In this document: positions 5,160-63,459 of the stretch, one piece after another
Layout: each line of letters starts with the position of its first letter
How positions within the stretch are numbered: the stretch's first letter is position 1
Source of the DNA: an uncultured Candidatus Altimarinota bacterium
GTDB lineage: Bacteria; Patescibacteriota; Gracilibacteria; BD1-5; UBA6164
Direction: 5' to 3'
NCBI GenBank assembly: GCA_963979005.1
Contig: CAXBVF010000001.1
Location: 177-64,176, forward strand
Length of the DNA stretch: 64,000 nucleotides
Notes under the pieces: generated by a model
What the model was told of the DNA's origin: nothing
The model's database searches: none
The model's input: only the letters and a program-made list of their open reading frames with translations
Translations under genes and position numbers: made by a program

Positions 5160-5187
5160 TTGACAAATACTTTATTTAATTTATAAT
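5160..5187 (+). promoter_or_regulatory. Near-consensus sigma70-type promoter for the 5231 ORF
   Basis: TTGACA (5160-5165), 16-nt spacer, TATAAT (5182-5187). AGGAG at 5217-5221 lies 9 nt before the ATG at 5231. Confidence 0.5.
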
Positions 5188-5230
5188 AACATTGTCTTTT
5201 TTTTAAACAATCTTACAGGAGAAAAAAATA

Positions 5231-6325
5231 ATGATTAGACAATTTGCAATAGCGGTAACTCTTCTTGGCTTACTTGTAGGCTGTGGAACAGATACTGAGT
5301 TTGTTGAGAAATCTCCAGAAAGCACTAGCTTCAAAATTAAAGCTATGGCTAATAATGACTTAACTTTTACTGGAGGGGCATTAGAATTTACAACAGAACA
5401 AGGGGTTCGCCATTTCGATGCTGATACTTACCTAAGGCCGCTGACGGAAACTGAAGTGGAGGAGGGAGTTGTAAATGTATATACCCCATATGGCTACGAT
5501 TATGTAGTACTATGGGTATATGGATATGTTAATGATGGGTCATCATGGGGTGGAAGTTATACATTTTCGACTCCTCAGAAAATTCTTTATAATGAAGGTT
5601 CTGAGAATATCATAAATGTATATCCTACATATATTGATACATATGAAACATTAGCAGTAACAGATTCATATCCTGATGGTTGTACCGTCTGGACGCATGA
5701 AGATACCTTGATCAGAGGCAAAGAAAATAATGTGAAGTATTTTGCCGTATGTAATGAAGATAAAAGTGAAACTTTGAAGCGTGGTCTGAATACAGTCAAT
5801 TTGCCTGGCACTCCGTCAGAAGATGGAGAAGTCGCTTTTGATGATGTGTCGGATGAATGTGATGAGGTTGAGCTTTTACTGGGTTGGTGTTCAGATTATG
5901 TCTTTTCCGATATAAATCTATATGATGTAAATGGTCGGAAGATAGAAAAATTATCTAAAACATTTTCTTTGTTAGATAAAGGCTCGCTGATTATTGAAGA
6001 TGATTTTTTATTTTCAGATGCTGAGAGAGTTAATCTCTTGACGCTGTGTATTAATACACCTGACGAAGAAATTGATTCTATCAAGTTTCAAAGCTTAGCC
6101 GTTCCGACTGATTATGATACTGATGTGTATAGGACTGTTAATACTTTTTATGATGATTTATCTGGAAATACTTGCCCTTATCTTGATAGTGGGATATTTA
6201 TTCCAAAAAATAATCAATTAATGGTTTCGTATAGTGTAGTAGGTTCTTCAGCATTTAATAATGTTGAGGCTACAATCGTTGAGGGATTTGGTAATACTAG
6301 CGGTTTTACAATCGTTGCTGAATAA
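5231..6325 (+). CDS. Lipoprotein of unknown function, free of TGA codons and compositionally atypical
   Basis: The 364-aa ORF is intact even under the standard code. The lipobox LLVGC follows a signal peptide. All 27 Gly are GGN. In-frame GCG, CGC, CCG, CTG, ACG and TCG codons are rare in neighbouring genes. A strong SD and a consensus promoter lie upstream. Confidence 0.75.
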   Translation: MIRQFAIAVTLLGLLVGCGTDTEFVEKSPESTSFKIKAMANNDLTFTGGALEFTTEQGVRHFDADTYLRPLTETEVEEGVVNVYTPYGYDYVVLWVYGYVNDGSSWGGSYTFSTPQKILYNEGSENIINVYPTYIDTYETLAVTDSYPDGCTVWTHEDTLIRGKENNVKYFAVCNEDKSETLKRGLNTVNLPGTPSEDGEVAFDDVSDECDEVELLLGWCSDYVFSDINLYDVNGRKIEKLSKTFSLLDKGSLIIEDDFLFSDAERVNLLTLCINTPDEEIDSIKFQSLAVPTDYDTDVYRTVNTFYDDLSGNTCPYLDSGIFIPKNNQLMVSYSVVGSSAFNNVEATIVEGFGNTSGFTIVAE

Positions 6326-6342
6326 ATGAAATGAGGAATACA

Positions 6343-6376
6343 AGAGGATGCAATAAAGCATCCTCTTAATTTTTTG
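6343..6376 (+). terminator. Intrinsic terminator of the 5231 ORF
   Basis: agaggatgc, loop aataaa, gcatcctct, followed by taatttttt. Confidence 0.6.
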
Positions 6377-54530: not shown

Positions 54531-54824
54531 TTCAGTTAATAATGTTAAAAAAATGTTAATTGGTAGATTTTTATACCTATTTATAGCAAAACTATACTCT
54601 ATTTTTATTCTTTTTTTTCCTTTTGTCAAAATAAGTATTAACAATTAACTAGACAAAATGTCTAAAATGATGTGTGCTATATAAAGCTAAAAAAACAGAG
54701 TTTTTAACATTTTATTAACACTTGTCTATATTAAAACAAAGTGTATAATTAGAGTATATATAAAAAACTTGATTTTATTAAAATATTACTAAAATAGTAA
54801 TAGTTTAATTTAAAATTACAAATA

Positions 54825-55565
54825 ATGATAAAAATAGAAAATTTAAAAGTATGAGTCTGAAAAAAGGAAATTCTTAAGTGAATTAGTCTTGAATTTGAAC
54901 TTGGAAAAAATTATTGTTTACTCTGAAAAAATTGAAGCGGTAAGTCAACTCTTTCATCTTTTTTAATGTGACATCCTAAATATGAATATAATAGCTGAAA
55001 AGTAAGTATAGAAGATAATGATTTGCTTGAAATGAACCCAGAAGAGAGAAGTGCCGCTTGATTATTTTTATCATTTCAAAATGTTCCTGAAATCAAATGA
55101 ATAAGATTAAGCGAATATTTGAGAACTATTTATAATATTCATTTAAAAAGTTCTAATCCTGATATAAAGGAATTATCACCATTTATATTTAAAAGGTTCA
55201 TAAACAAATATTTGGAAGAGCTTCACATTGATGAAAAATTTATGGAAAGGGAACTTAATGTTTGATTTTCTGGTTGAGAAAAGAGAAAAATTGAGATTCT
55301 TCAAATGAAGCTTATATGACCAAAATATATTATATTAGACGAAATAGATAGTGGACTTGATTTAGATGCTTTTAGAACAATAGCTGAAATGCTAAAAGAT
55401 CTTAGTAGTAAAGATAATAGTTTAATAATTATTACTCATTATTTCAAAATACTAGAGTATATTAATGTAGACAAAGTGTATGTGATGAAAGATTGAAATA
55501 TTGTAAAAAATGGTAATAAAGAGTTAATTAAAGAAATAAGTGAAAGTGGTTTTACAAATTTATAA
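54825..55565 (+). CDS. sufC: Fe-S cluster assembly ATPase SufC
   Basis: 246 aa. Walker A is LLGKNGSGKST (TGA-Gly at 54924 and 54933), the ABC signature is FSGGEKRK, and Walker B is ILDEIDSGLD. Confidence 0.9.
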
Positions 55566-55570
55566 ATAAT

Positions 55571-55590
55571 AAAAAAGCCCCTTACGGGGC
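55571..55590 (-). terminator. GC-rich hairpin terminator of the antisense ORF
   Basis: On the minus strand: gcccc, loop gtaa, ggggc, followed by tttttt. The ORF's stop codon lies in the loop. Confidence 0.55.
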
Positions 55591-55857
55591 GCTTTCAGAT
55601 GAGTATTTCTTATTTAGTTTTTTCAAACCTTCGAGTATCGCTAATGCTATACAAGCGAAGGCTATGTATCTAAACAAATGATGTACATCCAATGATATTA
55701 TTTCCCATATCTTCCATTCAGGATTGGCCCAAAAGAAATGGACAAATATACCTTTAATTGCATTTTGACCTGTCAATAAGGCCAATAGTGGTATAAATGA
55801 TAAGGATACTATCACGAAATAAGTACCGAAACTTAAATACTTTGCATATTTATTCAC
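55582..55857 (-). CDS. Small multi-pass membrane protein, TGA-free, antisense between sufC and sufB
   Basis: 91 aa with a GTG start. AAGGAG lies 7 nt upstream. There are 2-3 hydrophobic helices. G+C is visibly higher than in the flanking sequence. The ORF is intact under the standard code. Confidence 0.6.
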   Translation of the reverse strand: MNKYAKYLSFGTYFVIVSLSFIPLLALLTGQNAIKGIFVHFFWANPEWKIWEIISLDVHHLFRYIAFACIALAILEGLKKLNKKYSSESAP

Positions 55858-55890: not shown

Positions 55891-55918
55891 ATAATAACTT
55901 AAAATTTATATATGTCAA
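55891..55918 (-). promoter_or_regulatory. Promoter of the antisense ORF, with its -35 box overlapping the sufB start codon
   Basis: On the minus strand: TTGACA (55913-55918), 16 nt, TATTAT (55891-55896). Confidence 0.4.
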
Positions 55919-57318
55919 ATCAAAAACAACAAACTGTAACTGTATCTGATACCTGGAATTTTCAGGATGATAATATAGTTTATACTAACGAAATAATCAA
56001 GTGAATAAATGAAGATGTTGTTAGACAAATCAGTTTGTCTAATAATGAACCAGAATGGCTACTTGAGTCTAGGCTTAAGGCTTTAAAAATATTCAGAGAA
56101 AAAGAAATGCCTAAATGGTGACCGGATTTGTCTAAGTTGAATTTAGATGAGATTTATTATTATGCTAAACCAGAATGAGCGGGTGCTAAAAAATCATGGG
56201 ATGATGTTCCTGAAAATATTAAAAATACATTTGATAGATTAGGTATACCAGAAGCTGAAAAAGAGAGTCTTGCGTGAGTATGAGCACAATATGATAGTGA
56301 AGTTGTCTATCATAGCTTAAAACAAGAATTAGTAGATGCTGGTGTTATATTTGATGATACATCTATAGCTGTGAATAAGTATCCTGAATTATTTAAAAAA
56401 TATTTTACAAAATCTATTCCTCTTAGTGATCATAAGTTTGCTGCACTTCACTACGCTGTTTGGTCAGGTTGAACATTTTTGTATGTCCCAAAAGGTGTAA
56501 AAGTAACAGAACCTCTTCAGTCTTATTTTAGAATGAATAAAAAATCAGGTGGACAGTTTGAACATACAATCATTATTATAGAAGATGATGCTGAAGCTCA
56601 TTATATAGAATGATGTTCTGCTCCTAAATATGATGAAAATTCTTTGCATGCTGGATGAGTAGAAATATTTGTATGAAAAAATGCCAAGATGAGATATTCT
56701 TCAGTTGAAAACTGGAGTCTAGATACATATAATTTGAATACAAAAAGAGCTATAGTAGAAGAAAATGCCTACATGGAATGGGTGTGATGAAATATGTGAT
56801 CAGGAGTCACCATGTTGTACCCATGTAGTGTATTAAAATGAGATAATTCAAAAACAGATATGCTTTGACTAGCTTTTGCAAATGCTAAACAAAATCAAGA
56901 TATAGGTTCAAAAGTAATTCATATTTGAAAGAATACTTCATCAAATATATTGTCTAAATCATTGTCTAAGTGATGATGAATATCGACATATAGATGATTA
57001 ATAGATATAAAGCCTAGTGCTGTTTGAGCTGTGTCTAAAATAGATTGTGATGCATTGTTATTAGACAATAAATCAATATCAGATACGGTTCCAAAAATAA
57101 ACGTTTGAAATAGTGATTCTATAGTTTGACATGAAGCATCAGCTTGAAAAATAAGTGAGGAAGAGTTGTTTTATCTTCAGTCTAGATGAATATCTGAGGA
57201 GGAAGCAACTGGTATGATAGTAAACGGATTCTTATCACCAATAATGAAGGAATTACCACTTGAATATGCTAGTGAAATGAATGTATTAATTGCTATGGAA
57301 TTTGAGGGAGGATTTTAA
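55912..57318 (+). CDS. sufB: Fe-S cluster assembly scaffold SufB
   Basis: 468 aa with SufB/SufD-family beta-helix sequence throughout ([57 protein letters not shown]). Confidence 0.9.
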
Positions 57319-57368
57319 AAAGGCAAAAAGCCAGACAAGCTTTCCTCCTAAGAAGCTTTTACTGTCTG
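57318..57368 (-). terminator. Long interrupted hairpin terminator of the 57385 ORF
   Basis: cagacaagctt (57332-57342) pairs with aagctt..tgtctg (57353-57368). On the minus strand it is followed by gctttttgcctttt. Confidence 0.5.
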
Positions 57369-57384
57369 ACTTTTAAAATTTTGT

Positions 57385-57660
57385 TTACTCACTTTTATTT
57401 TCTACTTTCGTAAAATGGAGAAACTCTCCATCTATGAAAGCAACAGAAATAGTCATTTCTTTTCTTCCTTTAATAGGAACATCATGACCAAGTAATCCTA
57501 TTAAAAGTGAATTCTGTTGTTTTTTACAATCTATGTTACCTTGATTATATCCTTTAAGTCGTGCTTCATTTATAGCCTTATTCCTTGATATTCTGTCTAT
57601 AATAGCAGCTACTATAAATAGTAGTACTATTAAAATATATATGATAGTAAAATCTCTCAC
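57385..57660 (-). CDS. Small single-pass membrane protein, TGA-free, antisense between sufB and sufA
   Basis: The track ORF is 57385-57672. The likely start is GTG at 57660, with GGAGA 5 nt upstream. It has an N-terminal transmembrane helix (FTIIYILIVLLFIVAAII) and a C-terminal soluble part of about 65 aa. Confidence 0.55.
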   Translation of the reverse strand: MRDFTIIYILIVLLFIVAAIIDRISRNKAINEARLKGYNQGNIDCKKQQNSLLIGLLGHDVPIKGRKEMTISVAFIDGEFLHFTKVENKSE

Positions 57661-57689
57661 TTTATTCTCCAAAAATTTATGGTAAATAT

Positions 57690-57717
57690 ATTATAATCAC
57701 ATAAGTATTAATGTCAA
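57690..57717 (-). promoter_or_regulatory. Consensus sigma70-type promoter of the 57385 ORF
   Basis: On the minus strand: TTGACA (57712-57717), 16 nt, TATAAT (57690-57695). Confidence 0.5.
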
Positions 57718-57768
57718 TTTTAGCTATAAAAAAAGCCAAGCACAGGATAGTGCGAGACTCGGTGATAA

Positions 57769-57879
57769 CTAACTAATTAATGAATAGTTAGTTACAATTA
57801 TATAAATTCCCATGCATATACTAAATACTGTAAAACAGCATGATTTGTATAGAAAGTGATTTTTTTTCCCAGAAAACAT
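57769..57879 (-). CDS. Candidate 36-aa hydrophobic peptide
   Basis: MFSGKKNHFLYKSCCFTVFSICMGIYIIVTNYSLIS. GGAG lies 7 nt upstream of the ATG. It is not in the track because it is under 60 aa. Confidence 0.35.
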   Translation of the reverse strand: MFSGKKNHFLYKSCCFTVFSICMGIYIIVTNYSLIS

Positions 57880-57969
57880 TGTGTTTCTCCTTTTGGTAGT
57901 GGAATTATAGTTTATTTTTATTTTTCTCTAATAAAATTTAGAGGTCAATATAATATGTAAAAAAAATAA

Positions 57970-58365
57970 ATGTCAAATATTAAATTAGATAAAAATACTG
58001 TTAGATATTTTGAAGATAAAAATATATCAAAAATTAAGATATTTTTTTATGAATCATGATGTAGCTGAACAAAAGTAGATATTAGTGATGATTTTAAAAT
58101 TGATGATAATTTAGTACAAGTAGAAACAGATTATCTTTTTGATTTATATATAGAAAAAAAAGATCAAGATAAGTTTATGGATTGCAATATCACTAGAACA
58201 GTAAAAGCTGATCATACATGAAAAGAAAAGATACGTTATATATTTTCTAATGAAAAAGTAAAAGATAGATGTGGATGTGGTAGTAGTTTTAGTTTTGATA
58301 AAAAAGAAATTAAAATAGACTTGAGTAAATTAAAGGATATGAAGCTTAATATTAAAACTAAATAA
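57970..58365 (+). CDS. sufA: HesB/IscA-family Fe-S carrier (SufA/ErpA-like)
   Basis: 131 aa. Contains GCSGTK and the C-terminal CGCGSSF motif. Confidence 0.8.
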
Positions 58366-58368
58366 AAA

Positions 58369-59046
58369 ATGAAAATTACAAAAAATTGATTTTATAAACT
58401 ATCTGAATTTACTACAAATGAGATTAACATTGAAGATAACTTAATTGTAGCTATTTTTGATGATTTAAATGAGAATTTAAATATAGAAATCTGAGAAAAT
58501 TCTAGACTAGAATTTTATTCTATTATAGAAAATACTGATGATTTAAATATAAATTTTTTACAGAAAAAAGAATCATCTATTCTTCAAGTTAGATGTTTAT
58601 TATTATCAAAAGATTCTAATAAAATAAAAACTAGGATATATTCTGAATTATGAGCCTCTAAAACAAAATCTGATATTCAAATTATTTCCATTATTTGAAA
58701 TAATTGAGAAGTAGATTTGGATTGAATAATTCAAATAAATGAAAATATTGAGAAGGTAGATTGAAATTTAAATGAAGAAAATTTATTTTTAGGGAATAGT
58801 TGAAAAGTTAATTGAATACCAACACTTTTAGTAAGAAGTGATGATGTAAAAGCATCTCATGCATGTAAAATGGAAAGAATAAGCGATGATAAACTGTTTT
58901 ATTTAAGATCTAGATGAGTAGGTAAGGAAAATGCACTTTCAATGATGATAGAAGCAAAAATAAAGGGGTTATTTTCATGTATTTCTATGCTTGATAATGA
59001 GTTTTATGAAAAATTGCTTGATAATATATTAAAAAAGATAAAATAG
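58369..59046 (+). CDS. sufD: SufD-like Fe-S assembly protein (short)
   Basis: 225 aa with SufB/D-family C-terminal sequence (VKASHACKMERISDDKLFYLRSRGVGKENALSMMIEA). Confidence 0.7.
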
Positions 59047-60344: not shown

Positions 60345-60839
60345 ATGAAAAAGAAAACAAAATTAATAACAATTGCTGTACTATCAGTATTAGCTACATT
60401 TAATGCATTTTACTTGAGCTATGATTGGATTTTTACAGTTGATGAAGCTTCTAGTTTATATTTTTTAGCAACTGAATCTACTGCAGTAGGTTGAAGTTTT
60501 TGCGATATTAATGAAACATTATCATGTAGTGCTGTATTATCTCATCCTTTATCACAAATATATTGAATTCCTTTTCCTTTGATAGCTTTATTTGTATATC
60601 CAATTATTTTATTAGTTACAATACTTGGTATATTAAAAAAATATAAATATGTATTTAAAACTTTGGCTTTAATGTCTGTTGGTTGAATAATGTTTAATGG
60701 TTATTTTATATATCAAGAAACATTTAATATTTGAGCATTTTGTCCACTATGTTTAATATGTAGTGCTATAATACTTACTATATTTGGATTATCGGTAACT
60801 GAAGTAAAAAAGGAATGTATAAAAAATAAGAAAAAATAA
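60345..60839 (+). CDS. VKOR-family (vitamin K epoxide reductase-like) membrane protein
   Basis: 164 aa with four transmembrane helices. It has a loop cysteine pair (CDINETLSC) and a CPLC motif in the last helix. Confidence 0.65.
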
Positions 60840-61258: not shown

Positions 61259-61654
61259 ATGCTTAAACTTTCAAAAAAATGATGATATGCTCTAAAGGCT
61301 GTATTGTATATAGCTGAAAGAGAAACAGAATTAATAAAAATAGTAGATATTTCGAGAGAATTATCTATATCTGAATCATTACTTAGAAGAATTATTTCTG
61401 ATTTAGAGAGAACAAATATATTAAGTACTATAAAGGGAAGATCATGAGGTGTAAAATTATGAGAGGGGACTAATAAAATATCTATATATGATATACTTAG
61501 CTCTGTATGAGAAGAACTATGAATAACAGATTGTACTAAGTGATTGATATGTGATAATAGTGATGTTTGTAGTACGACATTATTACTATGAAATTTACAA
61601 AAAAGCTTTAATTGAATACTCAAACTTCAAACTTTGGATAAAATAATCAAATAA
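61259..61654 (+). CDS. Rrf2-family transcriptional regulator (IscR/SufR-like)
   Basis: 131 aa. MLKLSKKGGYALKAVLYIAE...ISRELSISESLLRRIISDLERTNILSTIKGRSGGVKL is the Rrf2 winged helix. A Cys cluster follows (CTKGLICDNSDVC). Confidence 0.75.
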
Positions 61655-61684
61655 AAAAGAACTCTTTAAAAGAGTTCTTTTTTA
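61653..61684. terminator. Bidirectional terminator between the suf cluster and rplA
   Basis: agaactct, loop ttaaa, agagttct, flanked by an A-run and a T-run. Confidence 0.65.
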
Positions 61685-61689
61685 TTTGA

Positions 61690-62388
61690 TTATTTTTCTT
61701 CATCAGTATTCATATCTATTCTAATTGAAGGTCACATTGCATTACAGATAAATACAGAATTTATATATTTACCTTTAGATCATGCAGGTTTTACTTCGTT
61801 AATAGTTTTTAAGAAGTGTTCTAAATTAGCTTCTAATTTTTCAGCTCCGAATGAAAGTTTACCAAAAAATGAATGAACATTACCTTGTTTATCAGTTTTG
61901 AATTCAAATTTTCAAGCAGAAATTTCTTTTATAGCAGATACTAAATCAGGAGTAACTGTTCCAGCTTTAGGGTTAGGCATTAAACCTTTTGGTCCTAAAA
62001 CTCTAGCTATTTTACCTAAATGTCTCATCATAGTAGGAGTAGCAACACAAACATCAAAATCTAATCATTGATTACCTTTATCGATATTATCGATTAATTC
62101 TTCTCAACCAGCTATCATTGCTCCAGCAGCTTTAAGTTCATCAGCATTTCCATCTGTAAAAGCACAAACTTTTGAAACTTTACCTGAACCATTTGGTAGA
62201 GAAATAGTAGTTCTGATTATTTGATCAGCATGTTTTGTATCCAAGTTTAAATTTAAATGAATTTCAACCGTAGGATCAAATTTAACTGTATTAGTTTTTT
62301 CTAATAGTTCTACAGCTTCTTTTACTGAATAAGCCATTTCTGAGTTAAGTAACTCAACAGCTTTATTATATTTTTTACCTCTTGCCAT
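61690..62388 (-). CDS. rplA: Ribosomal protein L1
   Basis: 232 aa. [14 protein letters not shown]...[14 protein letters not shown]...LPNGSGK...[27 protein letters not shown] chose the start at the MARGKK methionine rather than the track's upstream start. Confidence 0.9.
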
Positions 62389-62490
62389 TATATAATTTTT
62401 AAAAAATAAAGGTTTTAACGACATAACTTAGTCATGTCTTCCTTAATAGGTGGGCAGATTATATATAAAAAAAAGAAAAAGTAAAATGTT

Positions 62491-63114: not shown

Positions 63115-63459
63115 TTATTTAACAAAATTTATAACATTTGAGAATACAGTAGGATTTGAGATAGCCAAATTTGATAATACTTTTCTGTTTAATACAACTT
63201 TTTTCTTGTATAGAGCATTAATAAATTTTGAGTAAGTCATTCCATTTTCTCTAGCAGCAATATTGATTCTTACTGTCCAAAGTTTTCTAAATTCTCTCTT
63301 TTTTCTTTTTCTACCAATAAAGGCATTAGTACCAGCTTTCATCCAAGCATTTTTTGCTCTAGAGAAAACTCTTGAATTTAATAATCTATAACCTTTAGTG
63401 GCTTTTAGAATATTTTTATGTCTTTTTCTAGTCATTAGACCTCTTTTAACTCTAACCAT
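63115..63459 (-). CDS. rplT: Ribosomal protein L20
   Basis: MVRVKRGLMTRKRHKNILKATKGYRLLNSRVFSRAKNAWMKAG..., 114 aa. Confidence 0.95.
   Translation of the reverse strand: MVRVKRGLMTRKRHKNILKATKGYRLLNSRVFSRAKNAWMKAGTNAFIGRKRKKREFRKLWTVRINIAARENGMTYSKFINALYKKKVVLNRKVLSNLAISNPTVFSNVINFVK

Follow-up and report, generated by a model that had tools for sequence, protein, structure and literature searches.

Putative moron-like antisense cassettes for small membrane proteins at suf gene junctions in a Gracilibacteria genome that reads TGA as glycine

We analysed a 64-kb stretch of contig CAXBVF010000001.1 (assembly GCA_963979005.1, positions 177 to 64,176), hereafter the window, from an uncultured Candidatus Altimarinota bacterium of the Gracilibacteria. 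Spacers of its suf gene cluster carry small open reading frames (ORFs) on the strand opposite to the suf genes: orf95 and orf36 between sufB and a sufA-like gene, and orf91 between sufC and sufB. Each is accompanied by consensus-like promoter, Shine-Dalgarno (SD) and terminator sequences, and none contains an in-frame TGA, the codon this genome prefers for glycine. Our favoured reading, which we judge to have about an even chance of being correct, is that they are accessory cassettes of the moron type, encode small membrane proteins and occupy a hotspot between core genes.

Under this proposal, two autonomous minus-strand cassettes would occupy the sufB-sufA spacer and a third the sufC-sufB spacer, each made up of a promoter of the sigma-70 type, a short leader bearing a strong SD site, a small membrane-protein ORF and an intrinsic terminator. 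Their source would probably be the pool of code-11-compatible mobile genes known from Gracilibacteria phages, and their site a permissive hotspot between highly conserved core genes, where the ancestral ATGTCAA start of the next suf gene would give a ready-made antisense −35 box. Cassette transcription would converge on suf transcription and stop at hairpins just before the upstream suf gene. The predicted products are small inner-membrane proteins, with orf95 forming an anchor plus a basic domain, orf91 a two-helix hairpin and orf36, if translated, a single helix. Phage morons often act at the envelope, and the cassette products probably act there as well.

The features of these units and of the flanking genes are listed below; promoter and terminator calls are consensus matches, and lengths are in nucleotides (nt) or amino acids (aa).

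55577-55590, minus strand: intrinsic terminator of orf91, GCCCCGTAAGGGGC followed by a T-run (terminator scan)
55582-55857, minus strand: orf91, 91 aa from a GTG start, two hydrophobic helices, no TGA (ORF reading)
55891-55918, minus strand: orf91 promoter TTGACA-N16-TATTAT, its −35 box overlapping the sufB start codon (consensus scan)
57326-57374: candidate bidirectional terminator, an interrupted hairpin with a T-run on each strand, where sufB and orf95 converge
57385-57660, minus strand: orf95, 91 aa from GTG, no TGA (ORF reading)
57666-57670, minus strand: SD site GGAGA of orf95, 5 nt before the GTG at 57660
57690-57717, minus strand: orf95 promoter TTGACA-N16-TATAAT, 12/12, one of two perfect matches in the 64 kb
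57728-57762, minus strand: hairpin CCGAG..GCAC-loop-GUGC..CUUGG followed by T7, the intrinsic-terminator-like end of the orf36 unit
57765-57795, minus strand: perfect 11-bp stem-loop over the last nine codons and the stop of orf36
57769-57879, minus strand: orf36, 36 aa, basic N-terminus and one hydrophobic segment (residues ~13-32), no TGA (ORF reading; coding status uncertain)
57886-57890, minus strand: SD site GGAGA of orf36, 6 nt before its ATG
57904-57909, minus strand: alternative −10 box, a perfect TATAAT lying 25 nt upstream of the orf36 ATG and paired with a weak −35 (sequence read directly)
57926-57943: possible operator, the inverted repeat CTCTAA-N6-TTAGAG (unique in the window), in the gap from which the sufA-like gene and orf36 diverge
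57947-57976, minus strand: candidate promoter of the orf36 unit (consensus scan)
5160-6376, plus strand: lipoprotein unit with the same syntax as the suf-spacer cassettes (consensus scans)
54825-55565, plus strand: sufC (code 25 reading)
55912-57318, plus strand: sufB (code 25 reading)
57970-58365, plus strand: sufA-like gene (code 25 reading)

The sufB-sufA spacer spans 57319-57969 (651 nt), and the two minus-strand ORFs that a first-pass annotation of the sequence had placed in it were confirmed at 57385-57660 and 57769-57879. The orf95 frame is open from a TTG at 57672, which would give 95 aa; NCBI records start it at the SD-led GTG at 57660 (91 aa). Both the perfect promoter and the GGAGA that had been noted for orf95 are present. 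The only other perfect promoter in the window lies upstream of a lipoprotein gene at 5231. Promoter matches of at least 11/12 number 12 in the window, eight of them intergenic, with intergenic DNA making up 13% of its length. SD sites are similarly sparse: GGAGA stands at SD spacing before only 10 of the 3203 ATG or GTG codons in the window, and an SD-like motif precedes 2 of its 55 long host genes.

The orf91 unit repeats this arrangement at the sufC-sufB junction, as had been claimed, with a promoter at 55918-55891, GGAGA 6 nt before its GTG start, and a terminator. The −35 boxes of orf91 and orf36 do overlap the start codon of the suf gene that lies downstream. Both suf genes, sufB and the sufA-like one, begin ATGTCAAAT, and the reverse complement of the sufA-like ATGTCAA start provides the orf36 −35 box TTGACA (57976-57971). 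The −10 box of orf36 is less clear. The TTGACA-N15-TATTAT promoter originally proposed is there (−10 at 57955-57950), but the scan prefers TATATT at N18 (57952-57947; 11/12), and a perfect TATAAT also occurs at 57909-57904. The GGAG at 57890-57887 indeed lies 7 nt upstream of orf36. The long interrupted hairpin described after orf95 is also present, but its folding energy is not unusual (z −1.1). It may form the end for both sufB and orf95 transcripts, and two population variants (57360 and 57362) fall inside its internal loop. Repeat searches showed that the 11-bp hairpin of orf36 is not a repeated element. Far from suf, the lipoprotein unit combines a perfect TTGACA-N16-TATAAT promoter (5160-5187), an AGGAGAA ribosome-binding site and a terminator (6343-6376) around an orphan ORF (5231-6325; 364 aa, lipobox LVGC, 36% GC).

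The coding signature of these ORFs sets them apart from the host genes. The window (26% G+C) can be read sensibly only under code 25, in which TGA encodes glycine; TGA supplies 863 of the 1362 host glycine codons (63%) and 4.8% of all codons, and GGA supplies 176 of the glycines. The three suf-spacer ORFs, by comparison, use TGA for none of their 12 glycines, against 8 expected from host usage (P ~2e-6). The TGA-free character reported for both sufB-sufA ORFs therefore stands, is highly significant against host usage and is specific to the reading frame, with 0 TGA in frame versus 6 and 5 in the off frames of the three suf-spacer ORFs. This frame-specific depletion means that TGA acts like a stop codon within these ORFs, and, having no in-frame TGA, they would be read identically under code 25 and the standard code. 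The lipoprotein ORF has 0/27 glycines as TGA, with 8 and 35 TGA in the off frames (35 in frame 2). Altogether, the four intergenic SD-led ORFs of the window (orf91, orf95, orf36 and the lipoprotein gene) have TGA at 0 of 39 glycines. Glycine content of the ORFs is ~3 times the random expectation, with every glycine encoded by GGN. Strand composition was considered as a cause of the TGA loss and was ruled out by the minus-strand host genes, which are likewise rich in TGA, and by the frame-specific depletion.

Base composition differs from that of host genes in most of these ORFs as well. G+C content at third codon positions (GC3) in orf91, orf36 and the lipoprotein gene is 4-7 standard deviations above that of host genes (31.5% in orf91 and 24.3% in orf36 vs 12.5 ± 2.8%), and codon-usage scores of the cassettes fall within or under the low tail of host genes. 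ORF lengths were compared with dinucleotide-shuffled spacers. The lengths of orf95 (P ~0.01 under code 25, 0.0015 under code 11) and orf91 (P ~0.004 and 0.0005, respectively) are improbable in such sequence, and both are well supported as predicted genes. An ORF of 36 aa was found in 89% of shuffled spacers (code 25), so the length of orf36 is not significant; the case for orf36 as a coding sequence comes from its signals, and we place its chance of being translated near one half.

Hydropathy predicts an N-terminal transmembrane helix for orf95 (~residues 4-24) followed by a basic C-terminal domain of ~65 aa, which the positive-inside rule would place in the cytoplasm. For orf36 the Kyte-Doolittle maximum over 17 residues is 2.2 at residues 13-32, consistent with one helix. 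The orf95 frame is intact on ~90 contigs from several sources, annotated by NCBI as 'hypothetical protein', and contigs near-identical to the window come from Saanich Inlet and other marine metagenomes. The sole diverged homologue of orf95, P0002, is identical over the C-terminal 50 aa; its N-terminal helix is rewritten but hydrophobic, and the frame is kept across a 7-aa in-frame deletion. Predicted tryptic peptides of orf95 include EMTISVAFIDGEFLHFTK and QQNSLLIGLLGHDVPIK.

We then consider the same suf junctions in 14 suf loci from other species (L001 onwards), in which gene order is kept; the nearest species-level relatives carry Gracilibacteria or Patescibacteria labels as metagenome-assembled genomes. 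The spacers of these relatives range from 17 to 1424 nt for sufC-sufB and from 11 to 784 nt for sufB-sufA, the latter being 11-47 nt in L005-L007, L009-L011 and L014 and the former 17-23 nt in L004 and L006. Nearly all relative spacers longer than 150 nt contain a small, SD-led ORF on the minus strand. In L002, L005, L007, L008, L009, L010, L013 and L014, the best promoter upstream of it uses a TTGACA that overlaps or abuts the downstream suf start, and L003 has the variant TTTACA at that position. In a census of SD-led ORFs covering ~330 kb around the suf loci, antisense SD-led small ORFs had a density of 1.63/kb in suf spacers versus 0.43/kb across the remaining intergenic DNA of these loci. 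Of the 18 hits outside suf spacers, eight trace to a single internal motif that recurs where a conserved 114-aa ORF, which we take to be rplT, begins.

The antisense SD-led ORFs of the relatives use TGA for 6 of 66 glycines, against 31 expected (P ~9e-14), and most have a hydrophobic helix. The search of other Gracilibacteria suf loci that had been suggested thus returned equivalent inserts, non-homologous between lineages except in the group of L005, L009 and L010. That group shares an SD-led hydrophobic peptide of 37 aa (L005 7980-8093, L009 986-1099 and L010 7964-8077; minus strand) that is nearly invariant in its SD site, in the residues at both ends and in its terminator hairpin, and that varies in the middle; its ratio of non-synonymous to synonymous substitution rates (dN/dS) is ~0.6-0.8 in diverged pairs and >1 in the closest pair (7 changes). 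The antisense ORF of L002 was considered as a homologue of orf95, and the comparison showed no homology. The argument that the repetition goes beyond chance, drawn at first from two successive junctions, holds for both junctions here and gains from the unrelated ORFs at other Gracilibacteria suf junctions.

ATGTCAA opens sufB even in relatives with spacers of 17-23 nt (17 nt in L006), and the −35 box is therefore older than the cassettes. The alternative that an insert brings its own −35 box was ruled out by this ancestral start. As a separate observation on the sufA-like gene, its protein begins MSNIKLDK in the window, L002 and L013, MSNKLKLS in L008, and MKLDK or MIKIDK in short-spacer relatives; in L001 the gene also begins ATGTCAA.

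Cargo on the sense strand was found at the junctions of some relatives: HicA and a HicB-like protein just under the Pfam cut-off (L012 9544-9992), a weak ParE-like match with a small upstream ORF (L013 5189-5652), a transposase with HTH_38 and integrase-core (rve) domains, presumably IS30-like (L014 7447-8424), and a DUF559 endonuclease (L002 2767-3132). In this sense-strand cargo SD sites are absent, and the share of glycines encoded by TGA is roughly that of host genes.

Homologues were sought for orf95, orf91 and the lipoprotein in a word-indexed search of 5.8 billion proteins, and for orf95 also in a full HMMER search of 1.84 billion representatives; orf36 is below the workable length. Both searches returned only same-species copies and P0002 for orf95, and the word-indexed search gave self-matches only for orf91 and the lipoprotein. 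The cassette ORFs and the lipoprotein had no match in Pfam, PHROGs, NCBIfam or PADLOC, and scans of PDB sequences, phage genomes (tblastn) and IMG/VR gave no match to their products. A scan of JGI metagenomes found no orf95 relatives. Rfam and transfer RNA scans identified no known RNA in the suf spacers, and no phage genes were found near the cassettes. In repeat searches and junction alignments, we detected no target-site duplications and no shared insert ends; only ATGTCAAA aligns.

These properties can be set beside known systems. Phage morons, in the concept of Juhala and Hendrix, are autonomous units of promoter, gene and terminator inserted between neighbouring genes. The cassettes resemble them in having their own predicted promoter and terminator around a single gene, in sitting between genes that are directly adjacent in relatives, in their atypical composition (SD, TGA and codon score in all three; GC3 in orf91 and orf36, not in orf95), and in encoding orphan small proteins, mostly membrane proteins. 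Unlike morons, they lie in a chromosomal suf operon, antisense to their flanks, with no prophage and no phage homologue found. The suf junctions also resemble integration hotspots flanked by core genes, in that the syntenic flanks (sufC, sufB, sufA-like, sufD) are invariant and the cargo varies between genomes, including toxin-antitoxin genes, a transposase and an endonuclease. They differ in being intra-operon, with spacers of a few hundred bases, and in that we identified neither an integrase nor attachment sites for the small cassettes. Liu et al. (2023, PMC10746230) found no in-frame TGA in 34 of the 38 phages that they predicted for Gracilibacteria, and the cassettes share with these code-11-compatible phages the lack of in-frame TGA in a code-25 setting. 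Whole phage genomes are concerned there and single chromosomal genes here, and SD usage is outside the scope of that paper. We found no phage or plasmid homologue of the cassettes, or linkage to one, in the searches made.

Several observations weigh against the moron-like reading. No homologue was found on phage or viral contigs or in standard-code organisms in the searches made, and Gracilibacteria prophages are reported to be dense in TGA (PMC10746230), so integrated mobile DNA is not generally TGA-free; for both reasons, the mobile origin that we favour is purely inferential. The GC and GC3 of orf95 are host-like (GC3 14.1% vs 12.5 ± 2.8%), unlike a recent import. All three orf95 polymorphisms are non-synonymous and give no population-level sign of purifying selection, although variants are few. 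Structure prediction, which the first-pass annotation had suggested for the 91-aa orf95 protein, yielded a long N-terminal helix and a weak beta hairpin, but at low confidence (AlphaFold; predicted local distance difference test, pLDDT, 57); for orf91 the model has three helices where hydropathy gives two, also at low confidence (pLDDT 56.5). Finally, orf36 does not exceed chance length, lacks a codon-position GC pattern and ends in a perfect hairpin.

The main rival, a real though minor possibility in our estimate, is that the units are native, fast-evolving positional orthologues with a regulatory role. Antisense transcription would interfere with or insulate suf, and the ORF would keep the RNA translated and stable while the peptide itself matters little. 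What is conserved across lineages fits this well, since it is the architecture (antisense promoter on the suf start, SD site, small ORF, terminator) and not the protein. The 37-aa peptide group points the same way, with dN/dS of ~0.6-0.8 while SD and terminator are almost identical. Our consensus scan also found no strong plus-strand promoter for sufB or the sufA-like gene, and sense transcription must therefore cross the cassettes. Against this rival, terminators are predicted to end the antisense RNA before it overlaps suf coding sequence. A regulatory role further leaves the frame-specific exclusion of TGA and the atypical GC3 unexplained, does not account for an unrelated lipoprotein gene far from suf with the same syntax, and gives no reason why a transmembrane-like segment should be kept in most of the ORFs.

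A different interpretation, to which we assign only a small probability, is that the cassettes belong to a distinct, code-neutral gene class: SD-led, TGA-excluding, self-promoted and self-terminated, and encoding mostly small envelope proteins. Such genes would be selected for readability in both codes because they move between the bacterium with its altered code and partners that use the standard one (its bacterial hosts, or phages common to both), and would gather at suf junctions, where ATGTCAA offers a built-in antisense promoter. The evidence from orf95 keeps this idea alive. In the host genome, GGA to TGA is a single, synonymous and favoured change, and orf95 has nevertheless kept four GGA codons, which implies either recent arrival or selection against TGA. 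Its host-like GC3 leans towards selection against TGA, and it is this leaning that sustains the idea of a maintained code-neutral class.

We see a slim probability that the reading frames arose by chance, in AT-rich spacer DNA containing nothing but suf promoters and terminators. This explanation is strongest for orf36, given how often a 36-aa ORF arises in shuffled spacers, and it draws on the missing host codon-position GC pattern of orf36 and orf91, the low codon-usage scores and the lack of homologues beyond the species. It is opposed by the lengths of orf95 and orf91 (P <= 0.01), a glycine content ~3 times random with GGN throughout, the rarity of correctly spaced SD sites in this genome, the frame of P0002 kept across a deletion of seven codons, and the recurrence of the pattern in other genomes.

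Equally slim is the prospect that genes which avoid TGA and have SD sites are simply native ones expressed at very high levels, and not foreign in origin. TGA makes up only ~0-25% of glycine codons in several ORFs of the window (a block at 32.6-37.5 kb, 61690-62424 and 63115-63459) that we take to be ribosomal-protein genes, and both perfect promoters are followed by SD-led, TGA-free genes, as such an explanation would have it. These ribosomal-protein-like ORFs, however, have no SD sites and yet contain some TGA, and 0 of 39 over four genes is far under even their rate. The small native genes that we read from their translations as infA, rpmH and rpmA, which are presumably highly expressed, use TGA (7 of 9 glycines in infA) without SD sites; the GC3 shift is also opposite to the host bias. 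Neither high expression nor strand thus appears to account for the SD and TGA pattern.

The first-pass annotation had suggested a toxin-immunity or holin-like pair, with orf36 as the small hydrophobic peptide and orf95 as its membrane-anchored partner (immunity protein or antiholin), and this we consider the least probable explanation of all. The size (<60 aa) and hydrophobicity of orf36 fit type I toxins, orf95 is predicted to be membrane-anchored, and type II toxin-antitoxin genes lie at the same junction in L012 and L013. The cassettes indeed share size, a single hydrophobic helix and organisation as independent intergenic units with the type I toxins and small membrane proteins that enterobacteria and Firmicutes encode, but no antisense RNA partner was detected for them and they match no family. 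More directly, the terminator-like hairpin with its T7 (57728-57762) and the independent perfect promoter of orf95 (57717-57690) stand between orf36 and orf95, which are therefore not an operon. Searches of Pfam, PHROGs, NCBIfam and PADLOC matched no toxin, antitoxin, immunity, holin or defence family; sufB and the sufA-like gene flank the two ORFs, with no endolysin or spanin gene adjoining and no further notable ORF between them; and no plus-strand promoter of at least 9/12 was found at 57700-57900, though weak promoters could escape a consensus scan. As for holin-like traits (one to four transmembrane helices and a short, strongly charged C-terminus), orf91 with its two helices and KKLNKKYSSESAP tail fits, whereas orf95 has a C-terminal domain of 65 aa and orf36, itself of doubtful coding status, has no charged C-terminal tail.

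The surrounding locus provided several observations of its own. On the plus strand, the order is sufC, sufB, the sufA-like gene, sufD, sufS, a VKOR homologue, sufU and the gene for an Rrf2 regulator (rrf2). By eye, the sufA-like gene has the CGCG and GCSG motifs typical of A-type Fe-S carriers; it had no Pfam match at E <= 0.01. The VKOR-family membrane protein gene (60345-60839, plus strand; Pfam 1.8e-21) lies inside the cluster between sufS and sufU. Just 3' of the sufC promoter candidates, the inverted repeat ATTACTA-AAA-TAGTAAT (54790-54812) may serve as an operator to which the Rrf2 regulator, whose gene closes the cluster, responds. A strong palindromic hairpin (61628-61711), probably a bidirectional terminator, lies between the convergent rrf2 and the ORF at 61690-62424, which has a Pfam Ribosomal_L1 match in the equivalent locus of L016; the hairpin gave spurious weak Rfam matches to a microRNA and a Thr leader. 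Among population contigs, six (L016-L019, L022 and L025) have in common ~20 linked substitutions within 160 nt of sufD (58412-58572) between nearly identical flanks, a pattern that resembles a recombination tract in the N-terminal part. Contigs also differ by 1 nt in length at 58369, and a 1-nt insertion in the Saanich Inlet contig L020, at the window equivalent of 59961, splits sufS into two called genes (111 and 293 aa); the assembly is at fault here, or the allele is a pseudogene.

Genetic recoding is usually regarded as a barrier to gene exchange, and the code-25 genome studied here contains a small set of genes that make no use of the recoded codon. Genes of this cassette type have the signals of a different mode of translation start and recur at the same operon junctions across the phylum. 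They are also a warning to annotators that antisense genes can interrupt an essential operon. If the cassettes are expressed, two gene syntaxes would operate in one cell, and the cassettes would be recoding-free candidates for studying the passage of genes across a code boundary. They would likewise be candidates for asking whether SD-dependent initiation works in an SD-poor bacterium belonging to the candidate phyla radiation (CPR), and for the small envelope proteins that episymbionts may gain and lose fast.

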